A stretch of DNA of 64,000 bases from an uncultured virus (IMG/VR IMGVR_UViG_3300025530_000412) (IMGVR_UViG_3300025530_000412); one strand, 5' to 3'. Shown: positions 35,093 to 64,000, counted from the stretch's first letter. The notes: a model not told the origin generated them from the sequence alone. A program made the numbers and translations.

Positions 35093-35139
35093 ATTTCTAT
35101 ATTCCTCCTAATTAATAATAATTTAACTTTTAATTTAAA

Positions 35140-37327: not shown

Positions 37328-37358
37328 TATCTCACCTCCTTGACAAAATCAAAACATT

Positions 37359-38852: not shown

Positions 38853-38876
38853 TTGTACTTTGGCTTTAATGACACG

Positions 38877-41802: not shown

Positions 41803-42861
41803 TTGCAATCACTAACAATCAAAATAAGATTTTTTCCAACTAATCCAATTATATTGAAACAATTATCTCAAGAATATATTAAAATTGTAAATCAATTAAC
41901 AAAACAAGCAGTTGATAATGATTCATTTCCGAAAATCACGACAAAAAATATCCAAACATCACTCCCATCTGCTATTTGTAATCAAGCAATTAGAGATGCA
42001 AAAAGTGTTTTTAATAAATATAGAAAAACTAAAAAGTTATCTGTACTTAAAAAACCTGTGTATTATATTAATAATCAAAACTATACAATTTTAGATAATG
42101 CGATTGCTTTTCCTATTTCTATTAACGGTAAAACAAAGAAAACGTATTTTAAAGCCATTCCAACAGAGAAAGATATGAAATTAATTAAAAAATCTAAACT
42201 TGGTCTTATGCGTATTGTTGAAAAATCAGGCAAATGGTATGCTCAAGTTTCAATTCAGATTCCAGAACAAGAAGATGTTAATAGTGAAAATATAATGGGT
42301 GTTGATCTTGGATTAAAAGTTCCTGCTGTATGTGTAACATCAACAGGTAAAACTAGATTTTTTGGTAACGGTAGACAAATAAAATATATTCGTCGCAAAT
42401 ACCAATCACGTAGAAAAAAATTAGGAAAACTTAAAAAGTTACATGCAATCAAGAAACTAGGAAACAAAGAAAGTCGATGGATGAAAGATCAAAATCATAA
42501 AATTAGTAGACAGATTATAAATTTTGCTATCAAAGAAAATGTATCAGCAATTAAACTCGAAATTTTGGCGAATATTCGCCAAACGACAAGAACAAGTCGT
42601 AAAAACGCAAAGAATCTGCATAATTGGTCGTTTTATCAGTTGCAAAAGTTTATTGAGTACAAAGCTAATTTAGCAGGAATTAAAGTTGTATATGTGAATC
42701 CAGCATATACTTCGCAAACTTGCCCTTGTTGTGGAACAAGGAATCGTGCAGATGATCGAAAATACGAATGTTCATGCGGATTCAAAACACATCGAGATCA
42801 GGTTGGAGCGATAAATATTATGCGTCAACCTGTGACAGATGGTAACAGTCTGTCAGCCTAA
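41803..42861 (+). CDS. tnpB: RNA-guided endonuclease TnpB
   Basis: RuvC-I GVDLG, RuvC-II KLE, Zn finger CPCCG...CSCG, RuvC-III HRD..GAINI. Confidence 0.93.
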   Translation: MQSLTIKIRFFPTNPIILKQLSQEYIKIVNQLTKQAVDNDSFPKITTKNIQTSLPSAICNQAIRDAKSVFNKYRKTKKLSVLKKPVYYINNQNYTILDNAIAFPISINGKTKKTYFKAIPTEKDMKLIKKSKLGLMRIVEKSGKWYAQVSIQIPEQEDVNSENIMGVDLGLKVPAVCVTSTGKTRFFGNGRQIKYIRRKYQSRRKKLGKLKKLHAIKKLGNKESRWMKDQNHKISRQIINFAIKENVSAIKLEILANIRQTTRTSRKNAKNLHNWSFYQLQKFIEYKANLAGIKVVYVNPAYTSQTCPCCGTRNRADDRKYECSCGFKTHRDQVGAINIMRQPVTDGNSLSA

Positions 42862-42989
42862 GAACCTATATGGTCTGTCTTAGGATGGGCTGATGACACA
42901 GCCCTTAACTTGGAGATTGCATGAAGCAGAAATGCATGAGTGCGTTAATCATCCAAGAATCCCCCGCCTTTAGGTGTGGGGAGTGTCAA
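42780..42989 (+). ncRNA. Predicted omegaRNA (reRNA) scaffold; 5' boundary approximate
   Basis: Region from the tnpB 3' end to the right-end TCAA, as established for TnpB elements. Confidence 0.6.
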
Positions 42990-43318
42990 AAATTTAAATG
43001 TTGCTTTAATACTTCCAAATTCTTTGCTTTAATTTGAATATCAGCAATCTCATTTTCAATATATGAAATAGTACTTGCATACGTATATAAATCAAATAAT
43101 ACTTCTTTTGCTTCTTTTAATGTTTTACATTTTCTTAATTGCTTAGCATACTGTTCAATTACATTGTCTACATTAATCTCCAATTTAGGGATCATTATTA
43201 AATCGATATCTTCGGGTTCATCGATCAAATAAACGTCACCAAATTCATCATCTTCAAAATCATTAATTTGTTCTTCATTCAATTTATCCACCTCCAAACG
43301 GAAGCAGAGGATTCGCAT
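42986..43318 (-). CDS. Acidic hypothetical protein (true start probably near 43282)
   Basis: RBS GGAGGTGG before TTG; stop codon supplied by the IS right end. Confidence 0.6.
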   Translation of the reverse strand: MRILCFRLEVDKLNEEQINDFEDDEFGDVYLIDEPEDIDLIMIPKLEINVDNVIEQYAKQLRKCKTLKEAKEVLFDLYTYASTISYIENEIADIQIKAKNLEVLKQHLNF

Positions 43319-43391
43319 GTTTCACATATTGCGATTCATACTACGTGAACCTCACACGACTAAAGCCGCTGGTGTGTGTCAGCGCGAATTT

Positions 43392-44627
43392 TCAAACATA
43401 ATGAATACTCTCCAACTCTTCTAAGCTATACTCAAACAACATAAAACGCTTATGTCCACCAACATATCCATTATCTTGATGCCATTTATCTGTTTTGTTT
43501 CTGGTTGCTAATGTTCTAACCATCATACCGAACACATCTTTAGCGTCTTCAATATGAATATGTCCCATATGTATTTCTCTATTTTTGGCTTTTGCCCATA
43601 AATCAGGAAACTCAATGGGGAATATGTTATGCAAATTTTTTCTTGCTTTATCCCCATGTGTAATTCCAATGAAGTTATCTCCAAATACATGTACTTTTCT
43701 TTCTTGAAAAGAATCATCAAATTCAACTTGAGGAAATCTAGCTTTTAAAAATTGTACAAAAGCCCAACTCATTGATTCATCATGATTTCCTTTTGCATAC
43801 ATAACCTTTACATTACTGGATTGTTTAATAGCAACTTCAATTAATGGCTCATAAAATACTCGACAATCATTCCATGCTTTTACCATATCTACATTTTCGA
43901 TAATTGTCCCATTCGCTGTACTTGAACGAAAATTGTCGTGATGAAATAGATCCTGACCAACTACAAACAAAACTTCTTTCCATTTACTTTGACTTAATTT
44001 ATGTATAATCTTTACTTGGGTTGGTTTGTAATATTCATAATCTGATATTCCAAAATGAGCATCAAATAATGGAATTTCCAATAATCTATTATTATTTACT
44101 TTTATTTTTTCAATTTCAATATGTAATGGATTGGTTTGTTTTATAGTCTCTAATAGTTTATTAAAATCAAATGTATTTTGTTTTGGTCTTACAGTTATTT
44201 GGCTCGCATATAATTGAAGCACTCCATCTTGTTTGCTATAGGTATTCCAAATATTTGATCTGGCAGAGACTAATTCCCAAGCATTGGAATCATATCCATG
44301 TGCCTTCAATAAAAACTCAGGATTTTTTGAATCCTCAAAACTCATTTTTACCAATTTATTGCTTGATTGAGTGCCATCTTTATGTATTTCTACTGTTTCT
44401 TTAAATGATTTTTCTTTTAAAATATCACTTTTATTTTCATTTTTACTTTCTTTATTCTTTTTAAATACTTGATTTTTTACCCAACATCGCAACATTTCTC
44501 CATCAGTGAATATATCTCCACCATATTGATTGGCTATTTGTTGCCAAGTTAAATCAAGTAAACCTTCACGTTTTTTTATGCCCAATTCAAGGAGTTTATC
44601 TTTATTCAAGAAATCACCCCTTAACAT
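43392..44627 (-). CDS. Calcineurin-like metallophosphoesterase (YonJ-like)
   Basis: DAHFG, GQDLFH.D, GNHD, THGD, GHIH. Confidence 0.8.
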   Translation of the reverse strand: MLRGDFLNKDKLLELGIKKREGLLDLTWQQIANQYGGDIFTDGEMLRCWVKNQVFKKNKESKNENKSDILKEKSFKETVEIHKDGTQSSNKLVKMSFEDSKNPEFLLKAHGYDSNAWELVSARSNIWNTYSKQDGVLQLYASQITVRPKQNTFDFNKLLETIKQTNPLHIEIEKIKVNNNRLLEIPLFDAHFGISDYEYYKPTQVKIIHKLSQSKWKEVLFVVGQDLFHHDNFRSSTANGTIIENVDMVKAWNDCRVFYEPLIEVAIKQSSNVKVMYAKGNHDESMSWAFVQFLKARFPQVEFDDSFQERKVHVFGDNFIGITHGDKARKNLHNIFPIEFPDLWAKAKNREIHMGHIHIEDAKDVFGMMVRTLATRNKTDKWHQDNGYVGGHKRFMLFEYSLEELESIHYV

Positions 44628-44806
44628 TCTTTGGGTTCGACAGGAAACTCCTCTTTCAAAGTGAGTGAAACCAATTTCCCATCAAACCTACGCAATTCTG
44701 CAAGTAAATCATAAACAAAAACACCGTTTTTATCTTCCTCTGTAATTTCCATCGTATCCACATCTAGAACGCCATTAAATTGGACAGAATTATTTCTTTT
44801 TGCCAT
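44621..44806 (-). CDS. YonK-like small protein
   Basis: MAKRNNSV.F.G.LD...MEITE..K...YDL...L..FDGK.VS. Confidence 0.7.
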   Translation of the reverse strand: MAKRNNSVQFNGVLDVDTMEITEEDKNGVFVYDLLAELRRFDGKLVSLTLKEEFPVEPKEC

Positions 44807-44829
44807 TACATCAACTCCCTAAATTTTTT

Positions 44830-45483
44830 TCACCAAGTTAATGTATCTGCGTGAGTAGCAAGTTTTCCTCTAAAATTATGTGTTAAACTACATATTTTAA
44901 CATAAGATTCATTTTTAAAATGCTCTATGTATGGAACAAATCCACTTTTATCTGGATTAGGTAAATCATTTTGTCCATCATGACCAATCATTATTACTTT
45001 GCAATCATCATGAATTCTAGTTAAGACTTTTTTCAATTCTCCACGAGTGAAATTTTGTGCTTCATCAATGATTACAACCTTCCCTTTAAGGTTCATACCT
45101 CTAGCAAAAACATGAGACATGGGATATACCCATACTTCTCCGCGTTTTAATAAGTCTGGTCTTTCTGGATTAAATATTACTCGTTCAGGATCTTCATTTA
45201 TTTCAATTAACGCATCTTTCAAGGGGGTAATATATGACTCTTCTTTTTCTCTTTGGTTTCCGGGTCTAAAGCCCATCGTTCTTTCTTCAACAGGACTGAA
45301 TATATAATAAAGTGGTTTATTTAATAATTTGGCAACGGCAACAGCTAATGTAGTTTTTCCTGTTCCTGCTTTTGCATTGACAATAGTGAACTGGTAGTCA
45401 AAAATTGCATTCACATATTCTTTTTGCTCTTCAGTAAGCTTTGGAGCAAATCCAAATAAAAGATTATCTTTTGGTAGTGGCAT
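44830..45483 (-). CDS. phoH: PhoH-family ATPase
   Basis: AKAGTGKT, GFRPG, RGMNL, IIDEAQN, GHDGQND. Confidence 0.88.
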   Translation of the reverse strand: MPLPKDNLLFGFAPKLTEEQKEYVNAIFDYQFTIVNAKAGTGKTTLAVAVAKLLNKPLYYIFSPVEERTMGFRPGNQREKEESYITPLKDALIEINEDPERVIFNPERPDLLKRGEVWVYPMSHVFARGMNLKGKVVIIDEAQNFTRGELKKVLTRIHDDCKVIMIGHDGQNDLPNPDKSGFVPYIEHFKNESYVKICSLTHNFRGKLATHADTLTW

Positions 45484-45582
45484 AATAAACCCCCATATCT
45501 ATATCTAAAAATTTACGATTCGACGCTATGCAACCATTTGAGGAAATTCATAGTTGCATAGCGTCACTATTAGAGGGGTATA

Positions 45583-45861
45583 TTAAGAATTGCGTACTGC
45601 TTCTTTTAGTTTTGCTCCAGCCTTAAATGCAGGGGATACACGACTAGGTACTTGAATAGTTTCTCCAGTTTGAAGATTACGAGCAGTACGCGCAGCGCGT
45701 TTTCGAGTTAGAAATTTTCCAAAGCCACTAATGTTTACATCTTGACCTTGAGCAAGGGCTTCAGTCACAACGTCAGTAAAAGCTTCTACAACTGTACTAA
45801 CATCTTTTTTAGTGTAACCTGTATTTTTTGAAATTGCTGTAATTAAATCTGCTTTGTTCAT
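45583..45861 (-). CDS. hup: Histone-like DNA-binding protein HU
   Basis: MNKADLI, GFGKF, RAARTARN.QTGE, PAFKAG. Confidence 0.95.
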   Translation of the reverse strand: MNKADLITAISKNTGYTKKDVSTVVEAFTDVVTEALAQGQDVNISGFGKFLTRKRAARTARNLQTGETIQVPSRVSPAFKAGAKLKEAVRNS

Positions 45862-45970
45862 AAATTGATCAATCTCCCTTTAAATTTTTGTTTTTTGAGA
45901 AAGTAAAATATTCATACCCTCTCATACTATATACTGTAATTAGGCACTTATTTGTTATATTTTGACGTAA

Positions 45971-47575
45971 TTATCTACAATTTTTACAAAAACTATGTAA
46001 TCCATCCTTATTCCTTTTGTCTGGACTAAAATATTTTGTTGTTGCTAATCTATTTTGTTTACATTTTGCACATGTCTTATAAGTTCCCTTAACCTTATAG
46101 GTAAAGATCCAATCTTCTCGATCTTGTAAATATGTACTAGCTATCATTTTAGGAATAGTATCATTATAAATTTTTGATAATCTATCTTCGGTTAATTTTA
46201 CACCGTATTTTTTATATATCTTCTCAATAATATCTTTGGCTTCATATCCGTCAATCTTCATAATCAAAATATCTTTAATGTAATCATCAAATAAAGTTTT
46301 TTCAATTAACTCATCTAATACAAATAAGATTGCCCACATGTCATGATCAGGTTGATAATATACACTTTGCTTAAGTTGACTGTAGTAATTAATCAATTCT
46401 AAAATATGTTTCTCTTTAGCAAAATCAATTCTGTTTTCTGATACTAATACATAGTCACCATATACAATTTGCCCATCAACGTATTTATCTGAAAAATATC
46501 CTGTATCTTCATCAAAATTAAAAACTGTTGATTCCTTTGTTAATCTTTTAAAATGAATAATACCAGCTAATTTTTCTTTCATTATCACTATTTCAGATGA
46601 CAAGTCCTTAAATAATTTCTTTAACATATATAACTGTTTTTCGCCGTATTTAGTTACAATTGCTTTTTCACATTCTTTTTTAATGTTGCTGTTCTTACCA
46701 TGACCTAATACTTTTCTTAAGTATTGTAATACATCATATACTTCTTTGATTTCAGGATATTTTACCAAATCTTCGCTAGTTATTTTTATTTTTTTGTTGA
46801 TTGTGAATATTTTAGGTATCTTTTCAACTTCTTCCTTGCTACCAAGTAAAATTTCTTTCTTACTCCCCAAATTCATGTTCTTCTTTGTTTTTTTAAGTTT
46901 TACAGTACTTCCCCATTCAACACTTTTCTTTTTTTGTGTTTGATTTTTATATTTAGGAAATACCAAATAATCAACAATAGTACTTAAACCAAGTAAAGAA
47001 GTATCATTTTCTGTCAAGAAATCAGATTTTGATTTAATTTGTTTTTTTGCAAATAATGGTGAACTAATATAATTTATTAACCATTCTATCTTTTCATTGG
47101 TTAACACCTTATTTAAATGTTCAACTCGATCTTCTGCAAATTCTAAATTATAATCTAATTGTTTGATAATAGAATATAAAAATTGTTGGATGCTTCCGTC
47201 AACATGCCACTTTTTCTGTTTTGACCACTCATCTCTTTTTTGTTGCCACGGTCTTTTTATTTCCTCTAGGTTATAACCATAATCGATTTCATTACTTCTA
47301 AACTGATTAATCCAATAATTTTTTCTTTCATTCAATTTATCAGGATCGTCAAGTGTTTCAAGAATAATAAATTCAAATGAATCTTGCTTGTATTTATTCC
47401 AAGCATCCTGCAATCTCTTATTTTTATGCTCTCCCTTGTTTAATTTTTTGATCAATGGTGCCTTGTATGTATTAATATTTTTTGTTGAATTAATAAACAT
47501 TTTATTTGTATGTTTGTTTGTAATGCAATAAATTCCTAGTTGAGAATCATTCATCATTGTCCCTTGTATCACCAC
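45971..47575 (-). CDS. Protein with a GIY-YIG-like N-terminus, C-terminal HTH-like segment and Zn finger
   Basis: GIYCITN...MFINS, HKNKRLQDAWNKY...F.FIILE, GYNL; CAKC...FCKNC. Confidence 0.6.
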   Translation of the reverse strand: MVIQGTMMNDSQLGIYCITNKHTNKMFINSTKNINTYKAPLIKKLNKGEHKNKRLQDAWNKYKQDSFEFIILETLDDPDKLNERKNYWINQFRSNEIDYGYNLEEIKRPWQQKRDEWSKQKKWHVDGSIQQFLYSIIKQLDYNLEFAEDRVEHLNKVLTNEKIEWLINYISSPLFAKKQIKSKSDFLTENDTSLLGLSTIVDYLVFPKYKNQTQKKKSVEWGSTVKLKKTKKNMNLGSKKEILLGSKEEVEKIPKIFTINKKIKITSEDLVKYPEIKEVYDVLQYLRKVLGHGKNSNIKKECEKAIVTKYGEKQLYMLKKLFKDLSSEIVIMKEKLAGIIHFKRLTKESTVFNFDEDTGYFSDKYVDGQIVYGDYVLVSENRIDFAKEKHILELINYYSQLKQSVYYQPDHDMWAILFVLDELIEKTLFDDYIKDILIMKIDGYEAKDIIEKIYKKYGVKLTEDRLSKIYNDTIPKMIASTYLQDREDWIFTYKVKGTYKTCAKCKQNRLATTKYFSPDKRNKDGLHSFCKNCR

Positions 47576-52309: not shown

Positions 52310-53083
52310 TTGGGAAGAGGAAATTCCATTTTAATTTTAAGGGAGGATAATATGAACAATAATATACTTATTCCAGTAGTAGCTTTTTTGGATGATGAAC
52401 AATATAAATTAGATTCAAATGAATTATATTTATATTCATTGTTGTATAGATATAAAATAATTTATGATAATATTACTTTAATTAATATTGATACAATATC
52501 ACAATTAATGAAAAATAAATTTTATGTAATGAAACCTAATGGAGACGACACTAGAAATAAAAATAGAATAAAAAATATATTAATAAATCTTAAAGAAAAA
52601 AATTATATTAATTTTAATAATGACAAAATAAAATATACTACAGTTCTAATTATTAAATTTAATTATGAAAATAGAGCTTGTTATGATATACCATATAATG
52701 TGTTTGATAAAATTGAATTTCCAAAAGAATTATTAAATTATATAATACAAAAATATAATTTATTACATTTAAAGAAAAGAAAAATAAGAAATTATGAAAG
52801 TGGATATGAAAAATGGAAAACAACCGTGTTAGAAAATGATAATTATACCTGTAAAATATGCAATATTACAAACCAATTTGATGATAGTATTATTCTTCAT
52901 GCTCACCATAAAGATGGCTATGACTGGTGTATAGAAAGAAGAACTGATCCCACTAACGGTGTAACCTTATGCGATGGTTGTCATACTGAATTTCATATTT
53001 TATATGGTTATGGTGGTAATACAGAACAGCAATATATTGAATTCTATGAAAACAAAAAGAAGAATTCTCGATTAAACGCCTGA
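52310..53083 (+). CDS. wHTH paralogue fused to an HNH endonuclease domain
   Basis: N-terminus paralogous to the previous gene; DNYTCKIC, LHAHH, NGVTLCDGCH..FH. Confidence 0.75.
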   Translation: MGRGNSILILREDNMNNNILIPVVAFLDDEQYKLDSNELYLYSLLYRYKIIYDNITLINIDTISQLMKNKFYVMKPNGDDTRNKNRIKNILINLKEKNYINFNNDKIKYTTVLIIKFNYENRACYDIPYNVFDKIEFPKELLNYIIQKYNLLHLKKRKIRNYESGYEKWKTTVLENDNYTCKICNITNQFDDSIILHAHHKDGYDWCIERRTDPTNGVTLCDGCHTEFHILYGYGGNTEQQYIEFYENKKKNSRLNA

Positions 53084-53098
53084 TGTTAGGCGTTTTTT
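53074..53098 (+). terminator. Intrinsic terminator
   Basis: AACGCCTG-atgt-TAGGCGTT followed by a T run. Confidence 0.75.
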
Positions 53099-53881: not shown

Positions 53882-53910
53882 TTGCATTATTTTCGATTTC
53901 ATGCTATATT
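53882..53910 (+). promoter_or_regulatory. Early-region sigmaA promoter with extended -10
   Basis: TTGCAT-17-TATATT with TG at -15/-14 and A-rich UP-like upstream sequence. Confidence 0.7.
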
Positions 53911-53916
53911 TGAATC

Positions 53917-54425
53917 AAACAATAAAAGGAATTGAACAACAGCAACGACGACAATCACTTTCCCTCCCTGCTCGGACTGCTTATACCGTATCAAGCGATA
54001 CGGACGGCAACGAATCCGATCAAAGGGGAAGACATTGAAAACGTCTAGCACGCTGAATCAATTCCCTACATAGTTACTTGGCAGGATGCGAACGCAAGAT
54101 AGCTTGCACTAGCATCCGGGGAAGTCGCTGAACAGCGCAAGCTGAACGGCGCAAGGGCTGATCTTTGAAAATAAAATATTATTTACACGCGAGTTATTCG
54201 CGTGCGTGGAAACGGCGATCCACGTTACAACAGCTTGTCAAAATGTGGACAGGCTGTCCGTACACGAAACAGCGTGGCAGCACTTCGTGGAACCTGGGGA
54301 GTCCACGGAGGCGACTGTATGAGCGAGATATACCGTCAAAAAAGCCCCTAGTCAGCTATCTGACTTGAAAGGGTACGCTTATTTCGTATCATATAGGCAC
54401 GGTAGGAGTCCGGCACAACCCCCAC
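53917..54425 (+). ncRNA. Candidate large structured non-coding RNA / leader (family not recognised)
   Basis: GC-rich island with no credible ORF; many hairpins (CCGTATC/GATACGG, GGATGC/GCATCC, CACGCGAG/TTCGCGTG, ACAGCTTGTC/GACAGGCTGT, CTTCGTGGA/TCCACGGAG). Confidence 0.6.
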
Positions 54426-54470
54426 ATTATTCCGCTTTTTCTGTCCCCTTGCAAGAAGGGAGAAATAATA

Positions 54471-54684: not shown

Positions 54685-54933
54685 ATGATTATTTATCAAA
54701 ATGATTATATTACAATCAAGAAAAAAAATGTTTTTGGAAAGATTGGTTTAAGTGGTTATAACTCAAAAAATAATGCAACAATAACAGCATTTGCAAAGAA
54801 TGAAGCAGAAATAAATGAAAAAATAAAATATATAATTAACGAACTAAAAAAAGATAACAGTGTTATAAATTTAACTGAAAAACTAACAAAAATCGAAAAT
54901 AATTTTCTAAAAACAGTTTTTAACCATGAATAG
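54685..54933 (+). CDS. Hypothetical early protein
   Basis: RBS AAGGAGG. Confidence 0.65.
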   Translation: MIIYQNDYITIKKKNVFGKIGLSGYNSKNNATITAFAKNEAEINEKIKYIINELKKDNSVINLTEKLTKIENNFLKTVFNHE

Positions 54934-55043
54934 ATTTTATTTAATTGTCCAACATTGCAAATGGCGCATAACAGCCACGTTGTGCGCCTTATGGAGTGTT
55001 GGACGCTCCAAAAAAATAAAATATTACATAGGAGGAACAAACA

Positions 55044-55340
55044 ATGCAAGTAAAATTCATGTACAACGGCATAAAGGTTGACGGCAAACTGTATCGCGCC
55101 TATTACTGGCCGTGTACTTCCCGAAACATGCCGGAAGGAACGATCATCATTCGCGCGAAGGATTACGAGAGTTTCCCGAAAATTCCGGGTCTACGTACAA
55201 TAAACAACACGGACACGATGACGGATTATTTCGAAAAGGATCGAATTTACGTTGAGCCGAATAACCAATGGTATCCGCAAGTTCTTTCGGCGTATAAAAA
55301 ACTGCAAGAGCGGCGCGAACGTCGAAGGAACCCCGCCTGA
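55044..55340 (+). CDS. Hypothetical early protein; stop codon lies in the hammerhead core
   Basis: RBS AGGAGG; ends CCC GCC TGA. Confidence 0.7.
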   Translation: MQVKFMYNGIKVDGKLYRAYYWPCTSRNMPEGTIIIRAKDYESFPKIPGLRTINNTDTMTDYFEKDRIYVEPNNQWYPQVLSAYKKLQERRERRRNPA

Positions 55341-55394
55341 CGATGGCCCGGTGGCTCCGGGTCGAAACGCCCATAAGGGCGTCGCGGGAAGCCG
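55332..55394 (+). ncRNA. Type I hammerhead ribozyme 1
   Basis: Stem I CCCGC/GCGGG; CUGACGA; stem II GGCCCGG/CCGGGUC; GAAAC; stem III GCCC/GGGC; GUC cleavage after 55383; loop II UGGCU pairs with 3' AGCCG. Confidence 0.9.
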
Positions 55395-55421
55395 CAAAAT
55401 CAAATGAGGGAGTGAACAAAA

Positions 55422-55619
55422 ATGGCAAAACGTTACTTCGATGGTGAGTATGTCGGTCTTAACAACGTGACTTACAGCGGATACTACACCGTTGAAGGTA
55501 ACGTAGTAGTCAGGTTTACGACAGACGACGGCGAAACTTTTGATCCCGTCGGCGCAACACTCGAAGACGTGTTGACCTTCACGGAGTTACCGGAAGAACG
55601 AAGAAGAAATACCGTCTGA
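55422..55619 (+). CDS. Hypothetical early protein
   Basis: RBS GAGGGAG directly after ribozyme 1. Confidence 0.65.
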   Translation: MAKRYFDGEYVGLNNVTYSGYYTVEGNVVVRFTTDDGETFDPVGATLEDVLTFTELPEERRRNTV

Positions 55620-55644
55620 TTTGTACATATTAAGGAGTGATAAC

Positions 55645-55980
55645 ATGACTATGACTAAAAAAATCATCATCAATGTTCGTCCTATCATTTCAAATCTTCT
55701 CGCCGATTGGGACGGAGAAGGAAAACAAAGTCAATATATCAGACGTAACAAAAAGCTGATACTTGAATTTGTTGAAAATCTAGTCAATGACATTTCGGTC
55801 CCTTATGATTTACAATATATCAATAGTTACAAATTAGACATTGAAAATAGGGAAGTGATAATAACATACACTTGGATAGAACAAGACAATATTTATGACT
55901 GGTGCGAAGGAATGAAACTTAATTTGCAAGTCATTTCTGATCATATATGGCAAAAAGGCTTGACATGCATAGTAAAATGA
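55645..55980 (+). CDS. Hypothetical protein, paralogue copy 1 (MTMTKKIIINVRP family)
   Basis: RBS AAGGAGTG; near-identical to 56824..57156. Confidence 0.7.
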   Translation: MTMTKKIIINVRPIISNLLADWDGEGKQSQYIRRNKKLILEFVENLVNDISVPYDLQYINSYKLDIENREVIITYTWIEQDNIYDWCEGMKLNLQVISDHIWQKGLTCIVK

Positions 55981-56003
55981 AAATATATGGGAGGAACAAA
56001 CAA

Positions 56004-56249
56004 ATGTGGATGCAAATTAACGAAAATATTGATACCGGAATTGTTTCTGTCACATTATACGACGGATACGGCAACATTCTTGAACAAAAAGAGAATATGA
56101 CGGAAGACGTTGCTGAAAGTTATGTCCTTATGCTCAATGACAATTATTGTTTTTCGCAAAACATGAGAGTAGAAAACAACATTTACAAAAATGGAGAACT
56201 TTTTCGCACATTTCATCATTTTTTTAGTGACTTTATTGCAAGTTTTTGA
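56004..56249 (+). CDS. Hypothetical early protein
   Basis: RBS GGGAGG before ATG 56004. Confidence 0.6.
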   Translation: MWMQINENIDTGIVSVTLYDGYGNILEQKENMTEDVAESYVLMLNDNYCFSQNMRVENNIYKNGELFRTFHHFFSDFIASF

Positions 56250-56307
56250 ATGTTTATCTTGAACATAAGTTATCAGTTTTTCCGTTTACGAATTGGAGGG
56301 ATTGACC

Positions 56308-56481
56308 ATGTATAACAGAATTGGACCACAAGCCGAATACAAATTCCGTTGTGCTAAACATCAAGTATACACTCGCTGCGGGAAGATGATCGAAGTCATG
56401 GCGGACGGAAAAAAGGAAGCAAGAAAGATTGTCGAGTCACACGGATATGCAGTTGCTTTTGTAACACGCATTCCCGCCTGA
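56308..56481 (+). CDS. Hypothetical early protein; stop codon lies in the hammerhead core
   Basis: RBS GGAGGG before ATG 56308; ends CCC GCC TGA. Confidence 0.6.
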   Translation: MYNRIGPQAEYKFRCAKHQVYTRCGKMIEVMADGKKEARKIVESHGYAVAFVTRIPA

Positions 56482-56552
56482 CGAGCGCGAAGGCGCCTTT
56501 GGGCCCGCTGGCTACGGGCCGAAACCGGGCTTGTCCCGGTCGCGGGAAGCCG
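56471..56552 (+). ncRNA. Type I hammerhead ribozyme 2, with an extra hairpin before stem II
   Basis: Stem I UUCCCGC/GCGGGAA; CUGACGA; 17-nt insert; stem II GGCCCG/CGGGCC; GAAAC; stem III CGGG/CCCG; GUC cleavage after 56541; same UGGCU/AGCCG pseudoknot. Confidence 0.82.
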
Positions 56553-56577
56553 CAAAACTATGAAAGGGTGATTAGAT

Positions 56578-56802
56578 ATGGAAAAGCATCTGGTTTATTA
56601 CGGTTCTGGAGAAAGCCGGGAAAATCCCGGCGTTGGCGTCGATTTCATGAAGGCCGACGTGGATGGAATCGAGTTGTATGCCGAGATGCCGCCGGTGGAA
56701 GGTGATGAAACCGGGACGTATGACGCGTTGAAAGCTGAAATCCTTGCCCAAGCGCAGGCGCACGGGATCGACGTTTCTTGCCTAGTATTTTGGAATGATT
56801 GA
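56578..56802 (+). CDS. Acidic hypothetical early protein
   Basis: RBS AAGGGTG after ribozyme 2. Confidence 0.65.
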   Translation: MEKHLVYYGSGESRENPGVGVDFMKADVDGIELYAEMPPVEGDETGTYDALKAEILAQAQAHGIDVSCLVFWND

Positions 56803-56823
56803 GCATGATTAAGGAGTGATAAC

Positions 56824-57156
56824 ATGACTATGACTAAAAAAATCATCATCAATGTTCGTCCCATTATTTCTAGATTGCTCGACGATTGGGACGGAGAAGG
56901 AACGCAAAAACAATATATTAAACGTAACAAAAAATTGATATTTGAATATGTCGAAAATCTAATCAATGATGTTTCATCTCCTGACTTGCACTATATAAAA
57001 AATTACAAACTGGATATCGAGAATAGAGAAGTAGTTATCATATTCACATGGACGGAACAAGATAATATTTATGACTGGATGGAAGGAATGAAACACAATT
57101 TACAAGCTATTTCTAACCATATATGGCAAAAAGGTTTGACGTGTGTAACAGTTTAA
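56824..57156 (+). CDS. Hypothetical protein, paralogue copy 2
   Basis: Duplicate of 55645..55980 including the upstream TTAAGGAGTGATAAC. Confidence 0.7.
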   Translation: MTMTKKIIINVRPIISRLLDDWDGEGTQKQYIKRNKKLIFEYVENLINDVSSPDLHYIKNYKLDIENREVVIIFTWTEQDNIYDWMEGMKHNLQAISNHIWQKGLTCVTV

Positions 57157-57157
57157 C

Positions 57158-57231
57158 AGTCGTTCCGGCGACTCTAAACAGCGCATTAAGCCGGAAGCGT
57201 TAGACCGCATATAACAGCGGTCTAGGTTGCG
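57158..57231 (+). ncRNA. Pistol self-cleaving ribozyme
   Basis: P1 AGUCG/CGACU; loop UUCCGG pairs with CCGGAA; CUAAACAG; P2 CGCA/UGCG; UUAAG; GCG; P3 UAGACCGC/GCGGUCUA; G-U cleavage at 57226/57227. Confidence 0.9.
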
Positions 57232-57254
57232 AATAACAGAACGGGGGGAATAAC

Positions 57255-57560
57255 ATGGCAATAAGACTTAATCAAGAACAATTATTTACGGTCTGTCGGA
57301 TACTATCCAAGGATTTACATAATATTTACATAACAGAACACGCCGAACAACGCATGGAACAACGTAAAATATCATATGATGATATAATAAATGCGCTGTC
57401 GAATCCTATTGAATTATTAGACATTCGTTTAACAGAAAAGAGATATTACGCATATAAAATTCATGGGAGTGATAAAAACAAACATATTGTTTTTGTAATT
57501 GACGAAAAAACACGGACAATACATGTTGTTACAGTCATAAATAAACTATATAATCATTAA
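57255..57560 (+). CDS. DUF4258-like (RelE/BrnT-fold) putative RNase toxin
   Basis: ITEHAEQRMEQRKISYDDI..AL, HIVF...VVTV. Confidence 0.7.
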   Translation: MAIRLNQEQLFTVCRILSKDLHNIYITEHAEQRMEQRKISYDDIINALSNPIELLDIRLTEKRYYAYKIHGSDKNKHIVFVIDEKTRTIHVVTVINKLYNH

Positions 57561-57583
57561 TAACAATAAAAAAGGGTGATAAC

Positions 57584-57769
57584 ATGACTACAGATATTAA
57601 CAATTTGTTGTGCGTTGAGTGCGGAAATAGAGGATTCATACAAATAACAGTTAACAAAAACAATAACAACATTCCTGCGCTTCAATGTAAACATTGCATG
57701 TCTGTACTATACGGACATGAAGCAATGCAAATTATAACAGCGCAAAATGAACAATCAGCAACCAAATAA
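57584..57769 (+). CDS. YgiT/YokU-type zinc-finger protein (putative antitoxin partner)
   Basis: CVECG...NIPALQCKHC. Confidence 0.65.
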   Translation: MTTDINNLLCVECGNRGFIQITVNKNNNNIPALQCKHCMSVLYGHEAMQIITAQNEQSATK

Positions 57770-57840
57770 CAAGTATTCCATCTTATTGCCTGTTTTTTAT
57801 TTTAAATAATATCAAATATTATATTTGGAGGCGATATAAA

Positions 57841-58089
57841 ATGATTCTTTATAAAACTATTATTGACATTGAAAACTATCCTGCGGAAGTGGTTTTTGAA
57901 CGTTGTATAAATTCACCAGAGCATGGATTGACGAATGCTGAAGTGATGGTTATTTATGATAATATGGGAATTGACATTATTTCCTATGATCCCAATTTTA
58001 ACTATGAAGAATATCTTAACAGCAAACAATTTGAAGACAAAGTATATGATTCTGCAATTGATCGTTACGAACGACAAATGAATTTATAA
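57841..58089 (+). CDS. Acidic hypothetical protein
   Basis: RBS GGAGG. Confidence 0.6.
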   Translation: MILYKTIIDIENYPAEVVFERCINSPEHGLTNAEVMVIYDNMGIDIISYDPNFNYEEYLNSKQFEDKVYDSAIDRYERQMNL

Positions 58090-58226
58090 CAATCCAAGCA
58101 GAGCCGATCCGCTTAATTTTCATATCCAGTTAAAAGCAGGATTTTATTCCTGCTATGGACTTGTAAACATTTGCTTTATGAGTCGATAGCAGGAATAAAA
58201 TAATATAAATTAAGGAGTGAAATAAC

Positions 58227-58583
58227 ATGACAAAAAACGGTTTATATTTCAAACTTAAAGACGATAAGCATGTTTTTGGGAATGTCTATTCAGATAATAT
58301 CAAAATAACAGAAAAATGCATCTTTTTTAATGTGGCAGGAGAAACAAAAAGAATTTATAAAGATGATTGTATTTTTTGGGCAATAGTCCCAAATATAACA
58401 TTAGCTGAACATGAAAAGTTAAAGAAAAAACATGAAGCATTATTATCAGAAAATGGATTATTACTCGAAAATGGGAAAATTTTACAATATATCAACGGTC
58501 AATTTATTATTGACAATGAAGAATTTATTATAGGAGAAGAGGCATATTGTATTATTACTGGAAGGGAATTAATCTATTCATAA
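58227..58583 (+). CDS. Hypothetical protein
   Basis: RBS AAGGAGTG. Confidence 0.65.
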   Translation: MTKNGLYFKLKDDKHVFGNVYSDNIKITEKCIFFNVAGETKRIYKDDCIFWAIVPNITLAEHEKLKKKHEALLSENGLLLENGKILQYINGQFIIDNEEFIIGEEAYCIITGRELIYS

Positions 58584-58610
58584 AAAAGAGAAAATAAAAT
58601 TATAACAGGA

Positions 58611-58856
58611 GTGATAAAAATGATAATCAAATTGCATGAAAGATATAAATGTAAATCAAAACTAATCGAAAAAGTTATCAATAACAAGGGCTGGAAAATC
58701 AAAATTGTAGACGATCAAGTAGTAAGCAATAATATTGATCAAGATTTTATCGATTATTTTTGTGGATGGGAACAAACATATTCACCAACTACAACATGGA
58801 AACGATTGAAACCAAATGTAAAACCATTCTATGTAATAGGAGTGATGATCCAATGA
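58611..58856 (+). CDS. Hypothetical protein
   Basis: RBS GGAGTG. Confidence 0.55.
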   Translation: MIKMIIKLHERYKCKSKLIEKVINNKGWKIKIVDDQVVSNNIDQDFIDYFCGWEQTYSPTTTWKRLKPNVKPFYVIGVMIQ

Positions 58857-59070
58857 CTGACCAACAATTGAAAAAAACATCATCAACTTCATGAAACGTG
58901 CAAATAAACCTGTCACCATTGATGAAATCATTGATAACAGCGGTTTAACAAAAGATTTTTGGCTGATTAAAAGTATATTGAACCAATTGAAATTGTTTGG
59001 AGTGATTGAAGAATATAAAGAAGGATTAGAAAAAAGAAAATATGTCTTGTCGAGTCAACATAAAATATAA
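58853..59070 (+). pseudogene. Small wHTH-like gene frameshifted at an A7 run
   Basis: MTDQQLKK then IINFMKRANKPVTIDEII...L.QL...GVI in another frame; one extra A at 58871-58877 restores the frame. Confidence 0.45.
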
Positions 59071-59255
59071 TATAATCTATTCAAATAAGACGAAAGGAGG
59101 ATTGAAAATGAAAATGAAAATTCTGCATTTTCTTTTCCGTCTTGTCTTTCCTCAAAGTCGTTTTAAACCTATTCATAACATGACATACGATGAATTACTG
59201 GAATTTATTGAACATGCTTGATTAAAATAAAATAATAATAAAGGGGAAATGAAAA

Positions 59256-60443
59256 ATGAGTGTAACAGCAGCAGAAAAACAATATGTGTTGAATCAGGAA
59301 ACCGGAAAAATCGAATTACATTTCAATAAATCCGAATACCAAGCATTAACAGCAGACCAAAAAGCAAACCTGAAACGTTTCTTCTTGTGGTCGCCTCAAC
59401 GCCAAGCATGGGTTTCACGTTCAAAGAATAGTCATTACATGGCAATTCGAACGGCTGAACAGTTTGGTTTTACAAACGGCGGAAAAGTGGGTGAAAAGCT
59501 TACATATGCGGAAGAATTGCAACGGAAAGTAGATCGAGCAGAAAGACGTGCCGAACGTTATGAAAAATATGCAGAAAATGCAGAAAAACGTGCTGAAATG
59601 TTGCAAGCAGAAATGAATGAGTATTTGCGAAATCATGATATTGCTTTTTTCACACAACCGATCATTGCAGGACATGCTGCATCGGAAGCTTTTGCTAGAC
59701 AAAGACAACGCATATACGACAGATATCATAAAGGTTTTGAAGAATATCGAAAAAGTGAATACTTCAAGCAAAAGGCCATAACAGCCCATCAAACCGCAAG
59801 CATGACACAATTACAAGACCGTTCATATCTTAATAACAGAATTCAAGAATGTGAAGCGAATATAAGAAAGTATGAACGGTTGATTGTAACAGCAGAAGAA
59901 AAAAATAATCAAGAATGGTTACAATCTTTATTAGATAAAATGGAATATGAAGTGGATAAGTTGGCATTTTTTCAAAATAAATTAGACGCGATTGGTAAAA
60001 TATATACAAAAAATGATATTAAATCAGGTTATTTAGTTAAAATTCAAAATGATTGGGCGGAAGTTATAAAAGCAAATTCAAAAACAATTGAAGTAAAATT
60101 TCCATGGAATAATTGGACATTGAAATATAATTATGCAGAAATTCAAGAAGTCAAAATTCCTGAAGACTGGAAGGAGGAGAAAAAAGAAATCAAAAATCCG
60201 TTTAACATTGGTGACATCCTTGTAAGGAAAAATATTGCTGGTACTGCTGTTATTTCAGCTTATCAAGTTGTGAAAGTGACAGAAAAAAGCGTAACAATCC
60301 AAAAAATTGCTATTGAAGAAGGAAAACCAATCAGGGATAAATTTGTAACAGACAAGCAAGAAAGACGACAAGTAAAACAAGACAGAAGCGGAAATTTTGT
60401 TGTGAATGACGGCGACTGGTATTTGTACCAATATACTGCTTAA
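59256..60443 (+). CDS. DUF3560-like protein
   Basis: RAERRAERY...AE, FFTQPIIAGH.AS, YLNNRI.ECEA..RK. Confidence 0.7.
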   Translation: MSVTAAEKQYVLNQETGKIELHFNKSEYQALTADQKANLKRFFLWSPQRQAWVSRSKNSHYMAIRTAEQFGFTNGGKVGEKLTYAEELQRKVDRAERRAERYEKYAENAEKRAEMLQAEMNEYLRNHDIAFFTQPIIAGHAASEAFARQRQRIYDRYHKGFEEYRKSEYFKQKAITAHQTASMTQLQDRSYLNNRIQECEANIRKYERLIVTAEEKNNQEWLQSLLDKMEYEVDKLAFFQNKLDAIGKIYTKNDIKSGYLVKIQNDWAEVIKANSKTIEVKFPWNNWTLKYNYAEIQEVKIPEDWKEEKKEIKNPFNIGDILVRKNIAGTAVISAYQVVKVTEKSVTIQKIAIEEGKPIRDKFVTDKQERRQVKQDRSGNFVVNDGDWYLYQYTA

Positions 60444-60449
60444 TAACCA

Positions 60450-60485
60450 TAACAGGCACATAGTATAATTACTATGTGCCTGTTA
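60450..60485. terminator. 16-bp hairpin (terminator or processing stem)
   Basis: TAACAGGCACATAGTA-taat-TACTATGTGCCTGTTA. Confidence 0.6.
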
Positions 60486-60688
60486 AAATCTACATTTTAA
60501 CAGAAGGGAGCAAATAAAGATGTTTGAATTAATAGAATTAAAGACTGGTCGTGTAATTGAACGTCACAATTATTCTTTTCAAGAATTTATTGAAAATAAA
60601 TATTCTAGGTTTTGCTCATTACAAACTGAAAATGGTTTAATAATTGGTGATGTTCGTCCTGATTTAGTATGGCGCGAAGTTAAATAAA

Positions 60689-60997
60689 ATGAAAAAATTG
60701 TATCGCCTTTCAAGAAGTGAAGACAAATTGGAATGGATCGAATGTACTGGAACCGAAGTAAAAGTAGAAGGATACATATTATACTATGTAAAAAACGTAA
60801 AATTCTATGGTTATTATTCTAATTGTTTAATCGAGCCAAGGACAGGCATTTCTGTTGCACAAGGTAAAACCAAAAATCTTTGCACTGAAGACTTTAAAAG
60901 AAATTTGCAAAAAATTGGTCATGACGATTTTGAAAAACAAATAACAGAATGTATCAAGAAATATGGGGAATCACCATTGTATAACAAGACAGTTTAA
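60689..60997 (+). CDS. Hypothetical protein
   Basis: ORF in the early operon; EPRTG.SV motif. Confidence 0.6.
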   Translation: MKKLYRLSRSEDKLEWIECTGTEVKVEGYILYYVKNVKFYGYYSNCLIEPRTGISVAQGKTKNLCTEDFKRNLQKIGHDDFEKQITECIKKYGESPLYNKTV

Positions 60998-61048
60998 ATA
61001 ACAAAAATTAAAAAACTAAAATAATAATATTAAAAGGAGTGTTATAAA

Positions 61049-61633
61049 ATGATTCAGATTTCAACTTCTCCATGGGGATATATTCATCATTGCAAAACTG
61101 TTGTCGATGGTGTTTATATTGTTGAAACTGCTAGTCATGGCGGAATTATGATCCATAAAGATATTGCAGAACAATTGCTTTCAAAATATGCAAGAGCAAA
61201 AGGATCAAGATTCCAAGATTATTATTGCTATGAAGAGGATTGCGACTATGCTATTCCAGTTTTCGAAATGAAACATTTTTGGCAAAAATTCTTTAGAAAT
61301 AAAGATAACAGCGAAATCGAAAATATTCTCATGAAGTCGTTAAGTCTTTGGAACGCTGATTATTTGATTGCTATTGGTGTAACTCCACTTGAAAAACAAT
61401 ACAAACAATATCTTGCCAACAAAAAAGAAGAAGAAATGAGAAGAAATAAAGACGAAAATTTAATTATAGCAGCGTGGGGTGACTGGCACACGAAAAGAAA
61501 GGGAATCAATCTAGTGTTAACAGCCGACGGAAAATATCACTATGTAACTGAAAAAAGTTACAAACCTTTTGACGGATTGTATCTTTTGAGTAATTGTGAA
61601 ATTGTTGAAAGTGACGTTCCTTATTCTGCATAA
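61049..61633 (+). CDS. DUF7007-like hypothetical protein
   Basis: SPWG.I, V.TASHGG, YEEDCD.AI. Confidence 0.65.
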   Translation: MIQISTSPWGYIHHCKTVVDGVYIVETASHGGIMIHKDIAEQLLSKYARAKGSRFQDYYCYEEDCDYAIPVFEMKHFWQKFFRNKDNSEIENILMKSLSLWNADYLIAIGVTPLEKQYKQYLANKKEEEMRRNKDENLIIAAWGDWHTKRKGINLVLTADGKYHYVTEKSYKPFDGLYLLSNCEIVESDVPYSA

Positions 61634-61827
61634 AATATAGGGGATTATTCGAAATGGATAGTCCCCCAAAGATTCTCAAAGGGGTGATATATAATGCGCT
61701 TTATTTACGGCAAGAAAATCAATAACAAAATTTTTGTTCGCACGAAAAAAGGGAACTGGATTGAATTTGCTTTACTTTTTGTAGAATAAAAAGTAAAATA
61801 TATATAAAAAAACGGAGGTTATATCAA

Positions 61828-62159
61828 ATGAAATAAACAATTGCTCATGTTAAGTACGAAAATCATGTAAAAGAATCGCTACTTTCAGGAAAACCAGTTA
61901 ATTATGATTTAAAAGACTTTATTCCTCAAAAATAACAGCAAGAAAACAACAAGACAGTGTACAAAATATGAAAAAATAGTCTATGATATATTCAAAAAAG
62001 CAAAAGAAATTTTTCCTAAAATGCATGATGGTATGTTCATAAGACATGGTTATATTGCTGAAGAAATGGCTTATTTAATGAGTCAATGTAATATTATCGA
62101 AGAAGCAAGAGAGTTATATAATACATGGAAACATATTACATATAACACACCATGTCATA
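61828..62159 (+). pseudogene. Degraded small gene
   Basis: Good RBS (GGAGG) followed by ATG AAA TAA and further in-frame stops. Confidence 0.35.
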
Positions 62160-62201
62160 AATATTAAAAAGTCGATAAAACAAGTCTTTTAATAAGAAAG
62201 G

Positions 62202-62432
62202 GTGGAAAATATGAAACAATATACAATTGATTTTGTGTATTTGGATAATTATGAAATAACGGCATATAATAATGGTAAAATGGAATATTCTGATATTGTT
62301 CGATCATATGAACTAGATGGTTATGTATCTGCTTTGGAAACGCAAGGTTATAGGCGAGAGGTTATAGGCGAGCCTATGATGTTAAAAAATATAAAGAAGA
62401 ATTTAACGAAGCTAAAGAGAAATATGAAATAG
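62202..62432 (+). CDS. Hypothetical protein
   Basis: RBS AAGGGTGG. Confidence 0.5.
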   Translation: MENMKQYTIDFVYLDNYEITAYNNGKMEYSDIVRSYELDGYVSALETQGYRREVIGEPMMLKNIKKNLTKLKRNMK

Positions 62433-62474
62433 CAAAAAAGAAATACAAAACAGCGTTAAAAAATCCACTAATTA

Positions 62475-63107
62475 TTGTTAATCAATAAATTCAAACGTTT
62501 GGAGGATAAAGCAATGAAAAAACATGTTTTTATCAAAGTTTTTGAAAGAATTGTTGAACTTCTTAAAAACGAACAAGATAAAATTGATATTAATAATACA
62601 AATGATCTTGATATAGTAGATGAATATTTTTTATTCGATGATTTGATTTCAAAGTTTTCATTGAAAATTGATACGTTGCAAGGTAAAAGTTTTGCGAACT
62701 TTGATTTTTTTCCCGACTGGAAGGAAGAAAATAAGGAAATGAAACAAAATAAATTTTTCCATTACATTAATTTGATTGGAACAGAATTCATCGATGTTGG
62801 TGACGTTGCAAAAATGATGGGATGGGATACCTATCAAGTTTATGACAGATTGGAGGAATTGCCGATACCAGTCCATAATGGATTAAAAAAATTGTGGGCA
62901 AAACATGATTTTGAACATAAAGAGCAAAGAGCAACACTAAGTCAAGTTTTGACAGTTGCGGAAGCGGCAAAAAAATATAATGTTTCAAACGATACTATTA
63001 TTAAACTGTGTCAAGCAAAAAAGATCGCCGCAAGACAGACAGAAGATGGCGAATGGCTTATTGGGCGCGAAGGTTTGCATAATTATTTTAAAAGTATTAT
63101 TGAATAA
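62475..63107 (+). CDS. DNA-binding protein with a C-terminal excisionase/MerR-like HTH
   Basis: LTVAEAAKKYNVSNDTIIKLCQ..KI.A......WLI. Confidence 0.7.
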   Translation: MLINKFKRLEDKAMKKHVFIKVFERIVELLKNEQDKIDINNTNDLDIVDEYFLFDDLISKFSLKIDTLQGKSFANFDFFPDWKEENKEMKQNKFFHYINLIGTEFIDVGDVAKMMGWDTYQVYDRLEELPIPVHNGLKKLWAKHDFEHKEQRATLSQVLTVAEAAKKYNVSNDTIIKLCQAKKIAARQTEDGEWLIGREGLHNYFKSIIE

Positions 63108-63124
63108 AGAGGGGTGTAATAACA

Positions 63125-63850
63125 ATGACAGTTAAATTTAGACATCCTGATTACTTGTTTTTATTTGATATTGACAAAACGTTAGAACATTTAAAATCAC
63201 TTAAAGATAATATTCAAAAACCTTTCATTATGGATGCTGGCACACTGAATAATAATCTTTTTGACAATTCATATAACAGTTATGATGTTGGATATTATAT
63301 TCACAATTCTGTTTTAGAATTAATGCAATTTTTGACGAAAAAAAATAACATTTGGGAAATATGCGAAGTTGCTTTTAATGAAGACTACGAATGGGGAGAA
63401 AAAAGAAATAAAGATTTATTGTATAAATCATTTTACAAATATTCTCTTAAAGATGAATATGTTAAACCAGCAATCACAATTATTGACAAATGGATCGAAG
63501 AAACGGAAGATATATATAACAAAATGAAAGAAGAACAAGAGGAAGAAAAACAAAGACGTGAAATGTATAAGAACAAATATTCTATTATTGAAGTATATAA
63601 ACTTATTAAACCATCAGGCGGAGAAAATGGACAAGATGGCTATTATGATGGTTTAATTAGGAATAACAGTACTGGACAAACTGTTAGAATGGTCGCGCGA
63701 AATGTGTTTGACTTTGGATTTTATACTTATCCCAAACGACTTGAGGGGACAAACGATGTCTTTAATAGAGAGGTATGGACAGAAGAAGAAAGAAATGTAT
63801 CAAATTGGATTTGTGATTTTCCACCGTTTACAACAAGGACTCGTATGTAA
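63125..63850 (+). CDS. Hypothetical protein
   Basis: RBS GAGGGGTG; RNVFDFG motif. Confidence 0.65.
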   Translation: MTVKFRHPDYLFLFDIDKTLEHLKSLKDNIQKPFIMDAGTLNNNLFDNSYNSYDVGYYIHNSVLELMQFLTKKNNIWEICEVAFNEDYEWGEKRNKDLLYKSFYKYSLKDEYVKPAITIIDKWIEETEDIYNKMKEEQEEEKQRREMYKNKYSIIEVYKLIKPSGGENGQDGYYDGLIRNNSTGQTVRMVARNVFDFGFYTYPKRLEGTNDVFNREVWTEEERNVSNWICDFPPFTTRTRM

Positions 63851-64000
63851 TTAATAATTGGAGGGATATTTATTATGCGAAATTTAACAGAGTTGAAACA
63901 AAAAACGTTGGAATACTGTGAAAGAGTAAGGAAAAGCGGAGGTTTAACAGCAGAATACCAATTGGGACAAAAAACGTTACCAGATCATTGAGCCAAAAAA

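Follow-up and report, generated by a model that had tools for sequence, protein, structure and literature searches.

The DNA described here, referred to as the window, is a stretch of 64,000 nucleotides from an uncultured virus (IMG/VR IMGVR_UViG_3300025530_000412), and makes up most of a 77,676-base virus record (G000), for which figures are given in the orientation of the window. The element is an SPbeta-like prophage that has several late genes in common with SPbeta. The window starts with a host cyclophilin gene and an integrase, followed by lysis, tail (YomG_N), portal/terminase-type and other late genes on the - strand up to 47.5 kb. A domain of + strand genes then opens with an integrase-fold (YopR-like) gene, a RecD2-like helicase gene and two HNH-like paralogues, after which come a terminator, 1.6 kb of non-coding DNA and a block of small genes, mostly of unknown function (DUF4258, DUF3560, DUF7007, HTH_17, DUF7680 and DUF932), with a DUF262/GmrSD_N gene at its right border. 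As the terminator ends the upstream genes, the transcription unit of the block must start after it. This early block carries the subject of our analysis, an array of the short word TAACAG, or more loosely (A)TAACA(G/A), nearly all copies of which lie on one strand.

An earlier note on this sequence had claimed 32 copies of TAACAG on the + strand between 54782 and 63950, and every position that it listed was found, as were the approximately 10 copies (exactly 10) that it gave for the + strand of the preceding DNA (1-54781). Its count of about two copies on the - strand was right as to the asymmetry but not as to the number, which is three (60247, 60480 and 63681). In the whole window, both strands together contain 59 copies, against a mean of 31.4 and a largest value of 45 in 100 dinucleotide shuffles. 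The array extends past the window to approximately 67.8 kb and comprises 43 copies on the + strand and 5 on the - strand in the 13.1 kb from 54.7 to 67.8 kb (3.3 per kb), with five further + copies from there out to 74 kb. Upstream, the region from 46 to 54.7 kb contains no copy, although the genes there are on the + strand too. The late genes have 0.31 copies per kb on their coding strand, relative to which the block is enriched approximately 10-fold.

Gene-level nulls were based on the 30 genes in 54685-68018, in which 34 copies of TAACAG are observed. Synonymous shuffling within each gene gave 9.4 +/- 2.5 copies (largest 20), pooled synonymous shuffling 6.2 +/- 2.3 and codon permutation 2.95 +/- 1.7, and at least 34 copies were reached in 0 of 2000, 0 of 1000 and 0 of 2000 cases, respectively. 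The enrichment therefore survives both the codon- and the dinucleotide-preserving nulls that had been proposed as a check. TAACAG is the top hexamer of 54-75 kb under an order-2 Markov model (z of 15.1; 48 observed and 7.3 expected) and again under a conservative maximal-order model (43 and 23.7), and in a genome-wide scan of all hexamers for local clusters TAACAG and ATAACA rank first (p ~1e-19). The same scan of SPbeta returned nothing comparable and no TAACAG or ATAACA cluster. Shuffles, Markov models, codon nulls and cluster scan together rule out chance, composition or codon usage as the source of the array, and confirm that the enrichment in the early region is real.

A logo of 303 copies from five genomes carries information only at A(66%)-T-A-A-C-A-(G 52% / A 48%), with no conserved flank, promoter-like second element or hairpin within +/-40 nt of the word. 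With a core of 6-7 nt and the strand counts given above, the word has the form of the Chi type, that is, a short asymmetric word of 5-8 nt in one orientation. The 48 + strand copies found after 47.8 kb are distributed between two reading frames (26 as xTA-ACA-Gxx and 12 as xxT-AAC-AGx) and intergenic DNA (10), in agreement with the earlier report of copies both in open reading frames (ORFs; 38 of 48) and between them, and since they fall in two frames plus spacers a peptide motif was ruled out as their cause. Spacing is near random (coefficient of variation 0.95), with no regularity among the TAACAG copies. The only one-letter neighbours co-enriched in the block are TAACAA (2.7x) and TAACAT (2.4x), and none is depleted there, which rules out mutational conversion from a neighbour. 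TAACAG copies turn over between homologous DUF3560 genes which, together with the small number of genes shared among the phages that carry the array (see below), indicates that density rather than individual sites is maintained. The true strand of the word cannot be told from sequence, and the signal may equally be its complement on the other strand. Among the papers listed in a literature search for TAACAG in phages, none dealt with such a motif by title, and a search on Chi sites in the leading region in conjugation gave nothing relevant by title or abstract.

Relatives were found via the DUF3560 protein, which led to 14 viral-contig records; searches with the DUF932 and DUF7007 proteins for closer relatives added nothing new. 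The word is strongly enriched and one-stranded in five of the 14 records, representing four distinct and very diverged large phages, with TAACAG counts on the + and - strands of 44/3 (L001), 34/5 (L003, identical to L004), 32/3 (L005) and 19/2 (L008, in which ATAACA reaches 56/8). One record is borderline (L002, 7/0) and the other eight lack the array (L006, L007 and L111-L116). Among 19 loci of named genomes, which include Brevibacillus, Paenibacillus and Clostridia, no TAACAG enrichment was seen except for a weak signal in a prophage of Paenibacillus chitinolyticus (L020; TAACAG 14/8, AACAGC 17/4). Apparent polar words in L013, L021, L023 and L114 proved to be tandem repeats inside genes. 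In the whole records of the positive phages the word forms one block of 9-16 kb with 3.7-5.2 TAACAR per kb, which is always positioned at the start of the rightward small-gene domain, adjoining the late/early switch, and has sharp borders against co-oriented flanking genes. These phages have very few genes in common with the window. A RecD2-like helicase is encoded by all four motif-bearing relatives, of which it is the only common protein of the helicase-nuclease kind; neither the motif-less G005 nor SPbeta has it. In the comparison with related SPbeta-like phages suggested in the earlier note, the array recurs in four diverged phages, and SPbeta and more distant relatives are without it. We have therefore shown that a selected, clade-limited, one-strand word labels the early block.

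Outside the block, the orientation that is enriched within it is avoided. In G003, where gene orientations are balanced, ATAACA occurs 20 times on the strand of the block (+) and 73 times on the - strand; the 20 copies compare with 68.5 expected, the third lowest value of 2424 hexamers behind two palindromes, and the complement is ordinary. This depletion is found in the + gene domain (11 observed, 31.3 expected) and also in the late (-) domain, in which the same strand is antisense to the genes (8 observed, 31.0 expected, rank 5 of 2172). Sense/antisense ratios are opposite in + and - genes (Fisher p = 4.5e-7), and among hexamers polar in both gene-orientation domains TGTTAT/ATAACA ranks first. 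In G004 the pattern is the same but weaker (ATAACA 38 vs 74; 8 vs 18.6 in the late domain). The + strand of the late domain in the window's own genome, again antisense, has 10 copies of ATAACA where 26.0 are expected, which is rank 12 from the bottom among 1666 hexamers, and there the complement is as frequent as expected (21 vs 23.4). The same orientation is therefore purged outside the block in three of the five genomes, and as G003 and G004 are kin, the strong purge comes from about two independent lineages plus the late domain of the window. Because it follows the DNA strand even where this is antisense to the genes, a polar signal at the DNA level is favoured over a purely mRNA-level one; the pattern is the one predicted by a direction-dependent signal on the DNA strand, and is not predicted by an mRNA-only reader. 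Of the earlier proposal of a polar signal on the early region, a selected one-strand cis signal is retained; for its kind the note had named a coating site, a Chi-like or translocation motif and an RNA-binding or antitermination site, a choice that the data tilt towards the DNA level.

Table 1 Features of the window in and around the TAACAG array.
Feature	Position	Strand	Basis or remark
Window part of the TAACAG / (A)TAACA(G/A) array	54782..64000	+	32 TAACAG on +, 3 on -
Late-gene domain, ATAACA depleted on the + DNA strand	2300..47500	- (genes)	hexamer observed/expected
Terminator-like hairpin with T run, end of the upstream genes	53074..53095	+	
Strongly folded GC-rich non-coding stretch upstream of the array	53890..54470	+	minimum free energy -194 kcal/mol, z -5.9
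GC-richer island in the array, ~0.42 GC, single copy (56313)	55040..57140	+	GC and counts per kb
Pistol ribozyme match, copy 57212 inside	57158..57231	+	RF02679, 63.8 bits
DUF3560 gene, 6 copies	59256..60443	+	query for finding relatives
16-bp-stem hairpin after the DUF3560 gene	60450..60485	+	arms: + copy 60450, - hit 60480

The GC-richer island within the array contains duplicated genes and a structured element that is repeated; it resembles a later insertion in which the word has not yet accumulated. Two paralogous 110-aa genes (55645-55980 and 56824-57156; 79-87% DNA identity) have a common ribosome-site context, GGAGTGATAACATG, and TAACA is also present in the spacer ahead of several other start codons. 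A repeated GC-rich element lies at 55330-55399 and 56470-56557, and one copy is common to L001 (87% identity); a hammerhead reading of it was dropped, as there is no Rfam match at E <= 1. The Pistol ribozyme is flanked by copies of the word just upstream (57146 and 57154) and just downstream (57234). In both of two metatranscriptome runs contigs start at 56551, just past the second copy of the element, and end at 57196/57197 inside the ribozyme, and one RNA contig ends at 55341, at the first copy. Because RNA contig ends fall at the repeated elements and at the Pistol ribozyme, these observations suggest that self-cleaving elements cut the early transcript into units.

In the non-coding DNA ahead of the block, two pairs of direct repeats with a spacing of 77 bp (53260-53494), which could be iterons or operators, lie between the upstream genes and the strongly folded stretch. 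The latter has no Rfam match at E <= 1 and is covered by the deepest RNA contigs of 44.5-64 kb in the two runs (53932-54437 at depth 70.7 and 53969-54414 at depth 118), which makes it a candidate for a new abundant structured RNA of ~450-500 nt; it is partly conserved in L001 (54309-54636, 78% identity). A 27-nt inverted repeat (54427-54453 / 54636-54662, 96% complementary) brackets an ORF of 48 codons (54471-54617) that is 81% conserved in G001. Beyond the window, in the part of the record labelled L012 and close to the array's right border, a GC-rich hairpin without a T run (GGGCTAGG, loop, CCTAGCCC; genome 68025-68045, L012 9632-9652) stands directly after the DUF262 gene, and is conserved in G001 (17661-17680 as oriented), also near the right border. 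A MazF/PemK-family gene (genome 72808-73218, L012 4459-4869), with no obvious antitoxin ORF directly upstream, is located 5 kb past the block and has homologues in G001, G002 and G003. Among the late genes, on the opposite strand to them, is a TnpB / IS605 OrfB-type gene with a Cas12f1-like TNB domain (41803-42861, +).

We give first place to the reading that (A)TAACA(G/A), or its complement, is a Chi-like control word for a DNA-tracking enzyme that moves one way, with a probability of about 0.3. It comes first because Chi clusters are the only documented kind of co-oriented word cluster in phages, because Chi-type purging operates in SPbeta and because the RecD2-like helicase is present in four of four relatives. 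The word would be a cis-acting, orientation-dependent DNA signal present at 3-5 copies per kb on one strand throughout the ~13-kb early/accessory block, and its reader would be an enzyme moving one way along phage DNA, with a helicase-nuclease of the RecBCD/AddAB/RecD kind as first choice and probably not acting via the host's ordinary Chi. After entry from one side, such an enzyme would be switched or stopped by the dense co-oriented array within a few hundred bases. If the word is instead CTGTTAT on the - strand, the array would be turned towards an enzyme that enters from the side of the late/early switch, the end from which the early genes would be transcribed inward; that the array lies in first-transcribed DNA is plausible from the gene layout alone.

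A parallel is offered by lambdoid phages without recombination modules, in which co-oriented Chi clusters are found near the open, exposed DNA end, with 20 of 23 Chi on the top strand in LLS (E. coli) and 32 of 32 in MD8 (P. aeruginosa; PMC12315714). The likeness consists in a short asymmetric word, nearly all on one strand and concentrated in one part of the genome, and in MD8 the Chi-type word is the most frequent one in the phage but not in the host. The word of LLS and MD8, however, is the host's known Chi, has 8 letters and is found at ~0.5 per kb, whereas TAACAG is not Chi-like in the host proxies tested, and the word here has 6-7 letters and is found at 3-5 per kb. Chi of B. subtilis is AGCGG (PMC3321194). 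In SPbeta (NC_001884; L009-L011), which served as positive control, this word occurs 50 times on the + strand and 6 times on the - strand, whatever the gene orientation, and Chi-type selection is thus able to purge one orientation in this type of phage. The TAACAG phages resemble SPbeta and its host Chi/SRS polarity (SRS, SpoIIIE recognition sequences) in that a short word is purged in one orientation whether the genes lie on + or -, and differ from it in that the polarity of SPbeta is uniform, with no dense reversed block. The G-rich words AGGGGA (39:3; 23:2) and AGAAGGG (13:1; 11:1), the second of which is SRS-like, are equally polar in SPbeta, so that this prophage follows the polarity rules of the host chromosome. 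In L030, an element of a Clostridia metagenome-assembled genome (MAG), AGCGGAA (28/2) and GCGGAA (48/10) occur in all frames over ~10 kb (~6000-17000, +), among genes for DUF3560, three ParB-like proteins (GmrSD_N/DUF6551; DUF262-like) and an integrase-fold protein. AGCGGAA is found 926 times in the host MAG against 272 for the reversed control, its orientation is constant along the contig, and in L030 it is ~10 times denser than in the host; this array is probably a true Chi cluster.

A number of observations weigh against the Chi-like reading. Block and rest of the genome are of opposite polarity, and there is no good reason for purging a Chi-like word outside the block; LLS-type phages have one orientation genome-wide, whereas in the TAACAG phages the rest of the genome is opposite and actively purged. 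The purge was not seen in G001 and G002, and as all genes of the block are on the + strand, DNA- and RNA-level readings are inseparable inside it. A 357-bp repeat at the contig ends of G003 lies ~10 kb beyond the block, not at its border. No RecD2 helicase is known to read sequence. Known Chi words are G/T-rich. The host is Paenibacillales-like and is represented by proxies only, the best ppiB DNA identity being 82-83% with no species match in 136 + 401 genomes. In the 136 Paenibacillaceae genomes, TAACAG did not exceed its reversed control in any of the rows checked (highest ratio found 0.97), a control that is crude because TAA is a stop codon. No skew was found in 400 kb of G019 (22 vs 15, below expectation) or in 400 kb of P. 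chitinolyticus (G008; 6:6 in + genes and 20:17 in - genes), whose polar words are rich in G, with the complement of AGCGG and GGAAGCGG among them. Polarity of the AGCGG type is in turn not seen in these phages (23/19 in G000, 23/24 in G003). TAACAG as the ordinary Chi of the host is therefore not supported, the word being neither over-represented nor skewed in the proxies, and the reader would be phage-specified or come from an unsampled host. Our confidence in a Chi-like word is low because the polarity of block and rest is reversed, the purge is unexplained and the host tests are negative.

A private polarity code is possible in the same tentative sense, in which the reader is specified by the phage and the word serves, in two oppositely polarised domains, as a cis 'address' for a one-way DNA machine. 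No paper describing a phage architecture with two domains and a reversed array was found in the literature searched. FtsK-orienting polar sequences (KOPS) and SRS are host-wide G-rich octamers that guide a translocase, and share with the array a polarity flip at a defined point and the purging of the non-permissive orientation; the word differs from them in its far higher density and in not being polar in 400 kb each of the host proxies G019 and G008. Rather unlikely, in our view, is a signal in RNA or transcription, by which (A)UAACA(G/A), carried by the nascent rightward transcript or by the non-template strand, would tag early transcripts either for a factor favouring their elongation or stability or for an RNase of defined sequence specificity that shuts the early genes off later, with depletion elsewhere preventing rightward transcription that is early or antisense. 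Every copy is on the coding strand of a co-oriented block preceded by a terminator and a long leader, parts of this block are present at low depth in the two metatranscriptome runs (lack of RNA cover, as at 49-53.6 kb in run X3, is not evidence of silence), self-cleaving ribozymes point to a heavily processed transcript, three of the four relatives have homologues of the downstream MazF/PemK RNase gene, and the sense-strand depletion in + genes outside the block fits temporal control. However, MazF is missing in G004, and the late (-) genes are depleted on the antisense strand with the sense strand near expectation (8 vs 28 in G003; 11 vs 20 in G000), which an mRNA-level reader does not predict unless antisense read-through matters, and which differs from the sense-only selection of RNase targets of the RegB or MazF kind (RegB of T4 acts at GGAG). 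In RNA, the copies and composition-matched hexamers have the same predicted accessibility within error (0.196 vs 0.171, p = 0.15), and RNA contigs pass through copies unbroken (for example 59738-59989, with three copies), though contigs cannot show ends or cleavage. RNA-level options are weakened by these results.

An array bound by a phage protein, acting as a polar barrier to or silencer of RNA polymerase or the replication fork and avoided elsewhere in the blocking orientation, is an unlikely alternative for which Tus-Ter and the stoperators of L5, both of which block polymerase or fork from one side, provide models. The restriction of the pattern to one domain with sharp borders against co-oriented genes, a purge that fits harm in one orientation only, the helix-turn-helix and ParB-like (DUF262) proteins encoded in the block and the DUF262 gene near its right border in G000, G001, G002 and G003 all agree with it. 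L5 stoperators (cluster A mycobacteriophages) are likewise many dispersed asymmetric sites under an orientation rule, but are 13 bp long, mostly between genes, oriented with transcription and bound by the repressor gp71, whereas the word is of 6-7 nt, is mostly inside genes (38 of 48 copies) and is purged by DNA strand (G003, Fisher p = 4.5e-7). Six to seven specified bases with no conserved flanks are also short for a specific site in double-stranded DNA, unlike a repressor site of 13-15 bp in promoter or intergenic DNA, and the helicase is the one candidate protein conserved in every motif-bearing genome. The SPBRE-MrpR operator of SPbeta, described in PMC10516654 as a 15-bp motif at ~10 promoters, is unlike the word. 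Two oppositely polarised domains, with (C/T)TGTTAT on - inside the block and on + outside it, would also be compatible with a lagging-strand word, and a primer copied from it would begin with A; (C/T)TGTTAT could then serve primase as a start or loading word on the template of the lagging strand. Forks would diverge from an origin located at the block's far border, in a linear genome that ends at the switch, a geometry like that of T7. The iteron-like 77-bp-spaced repeats near the block may be counted in its favour, but the origin would be putative, primase words are usually trinucleotides (Firmicute primase included), and neither the 7-25-fold higher density in the block nor the purge from the leading-strand template is explained, and we consider such a geometry quite improbable. 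Packaging and ejection are one-way along the whole genome and could thus impose genome-wide strand polarity, with the word read by the terminase motor, or on DNA entry, to define or handle the last-packaged or first-injected segment with the early genes; the genes of the block are dispensable and turn over fast. Against this, headful termination and pac recognition should tolerate single copies elsewhere and predict no purge, the distance from terminase to block varies from ~10 to 42 kb, and DNA depth across the block is flat (40-43 in one run, of a sample that is probably prophage), with no sign of a terminal repeat, which makes this reading very unlikely. Restriction pressure is the least credible source: sites of Type III and BREX-type (bacteriophage exclusion) systems have A at position 5, as does TAACAG, their strand bias is known from T7 (EcoP15I), and an asymmetric hexamer purged from one strand outside the block would fit, but avoidance cannot yield a 10-fold enrichment that beats codon nulls, and opposite orientations in block and rest create the inverted pairs that such enzymes cut.

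Short words read in one direction, such as Chi and KOPS, organise the repair and movement of bacterial chromosomes, and their recognition in phages is only beginning. The word described here is conserved across phages with almost no genes in common, in an array that is sharply bounded and ultra-dense over the early genes, and its orientation there is purged elsewhere. The segment that carries it turns over quickly and holds families of unknown function, among them DUF3560, DUF932 and DUF7007. With a nuclease-helicase as reader, the array would shield in cis the genes that the phage needs first, and with a reader encoded by the phage it would represent a new self-marking system. The weak version of the array in a prophage of the culturable Paenibacillus chitinolyticus NBRC 15660 makes this hypothesis testable.

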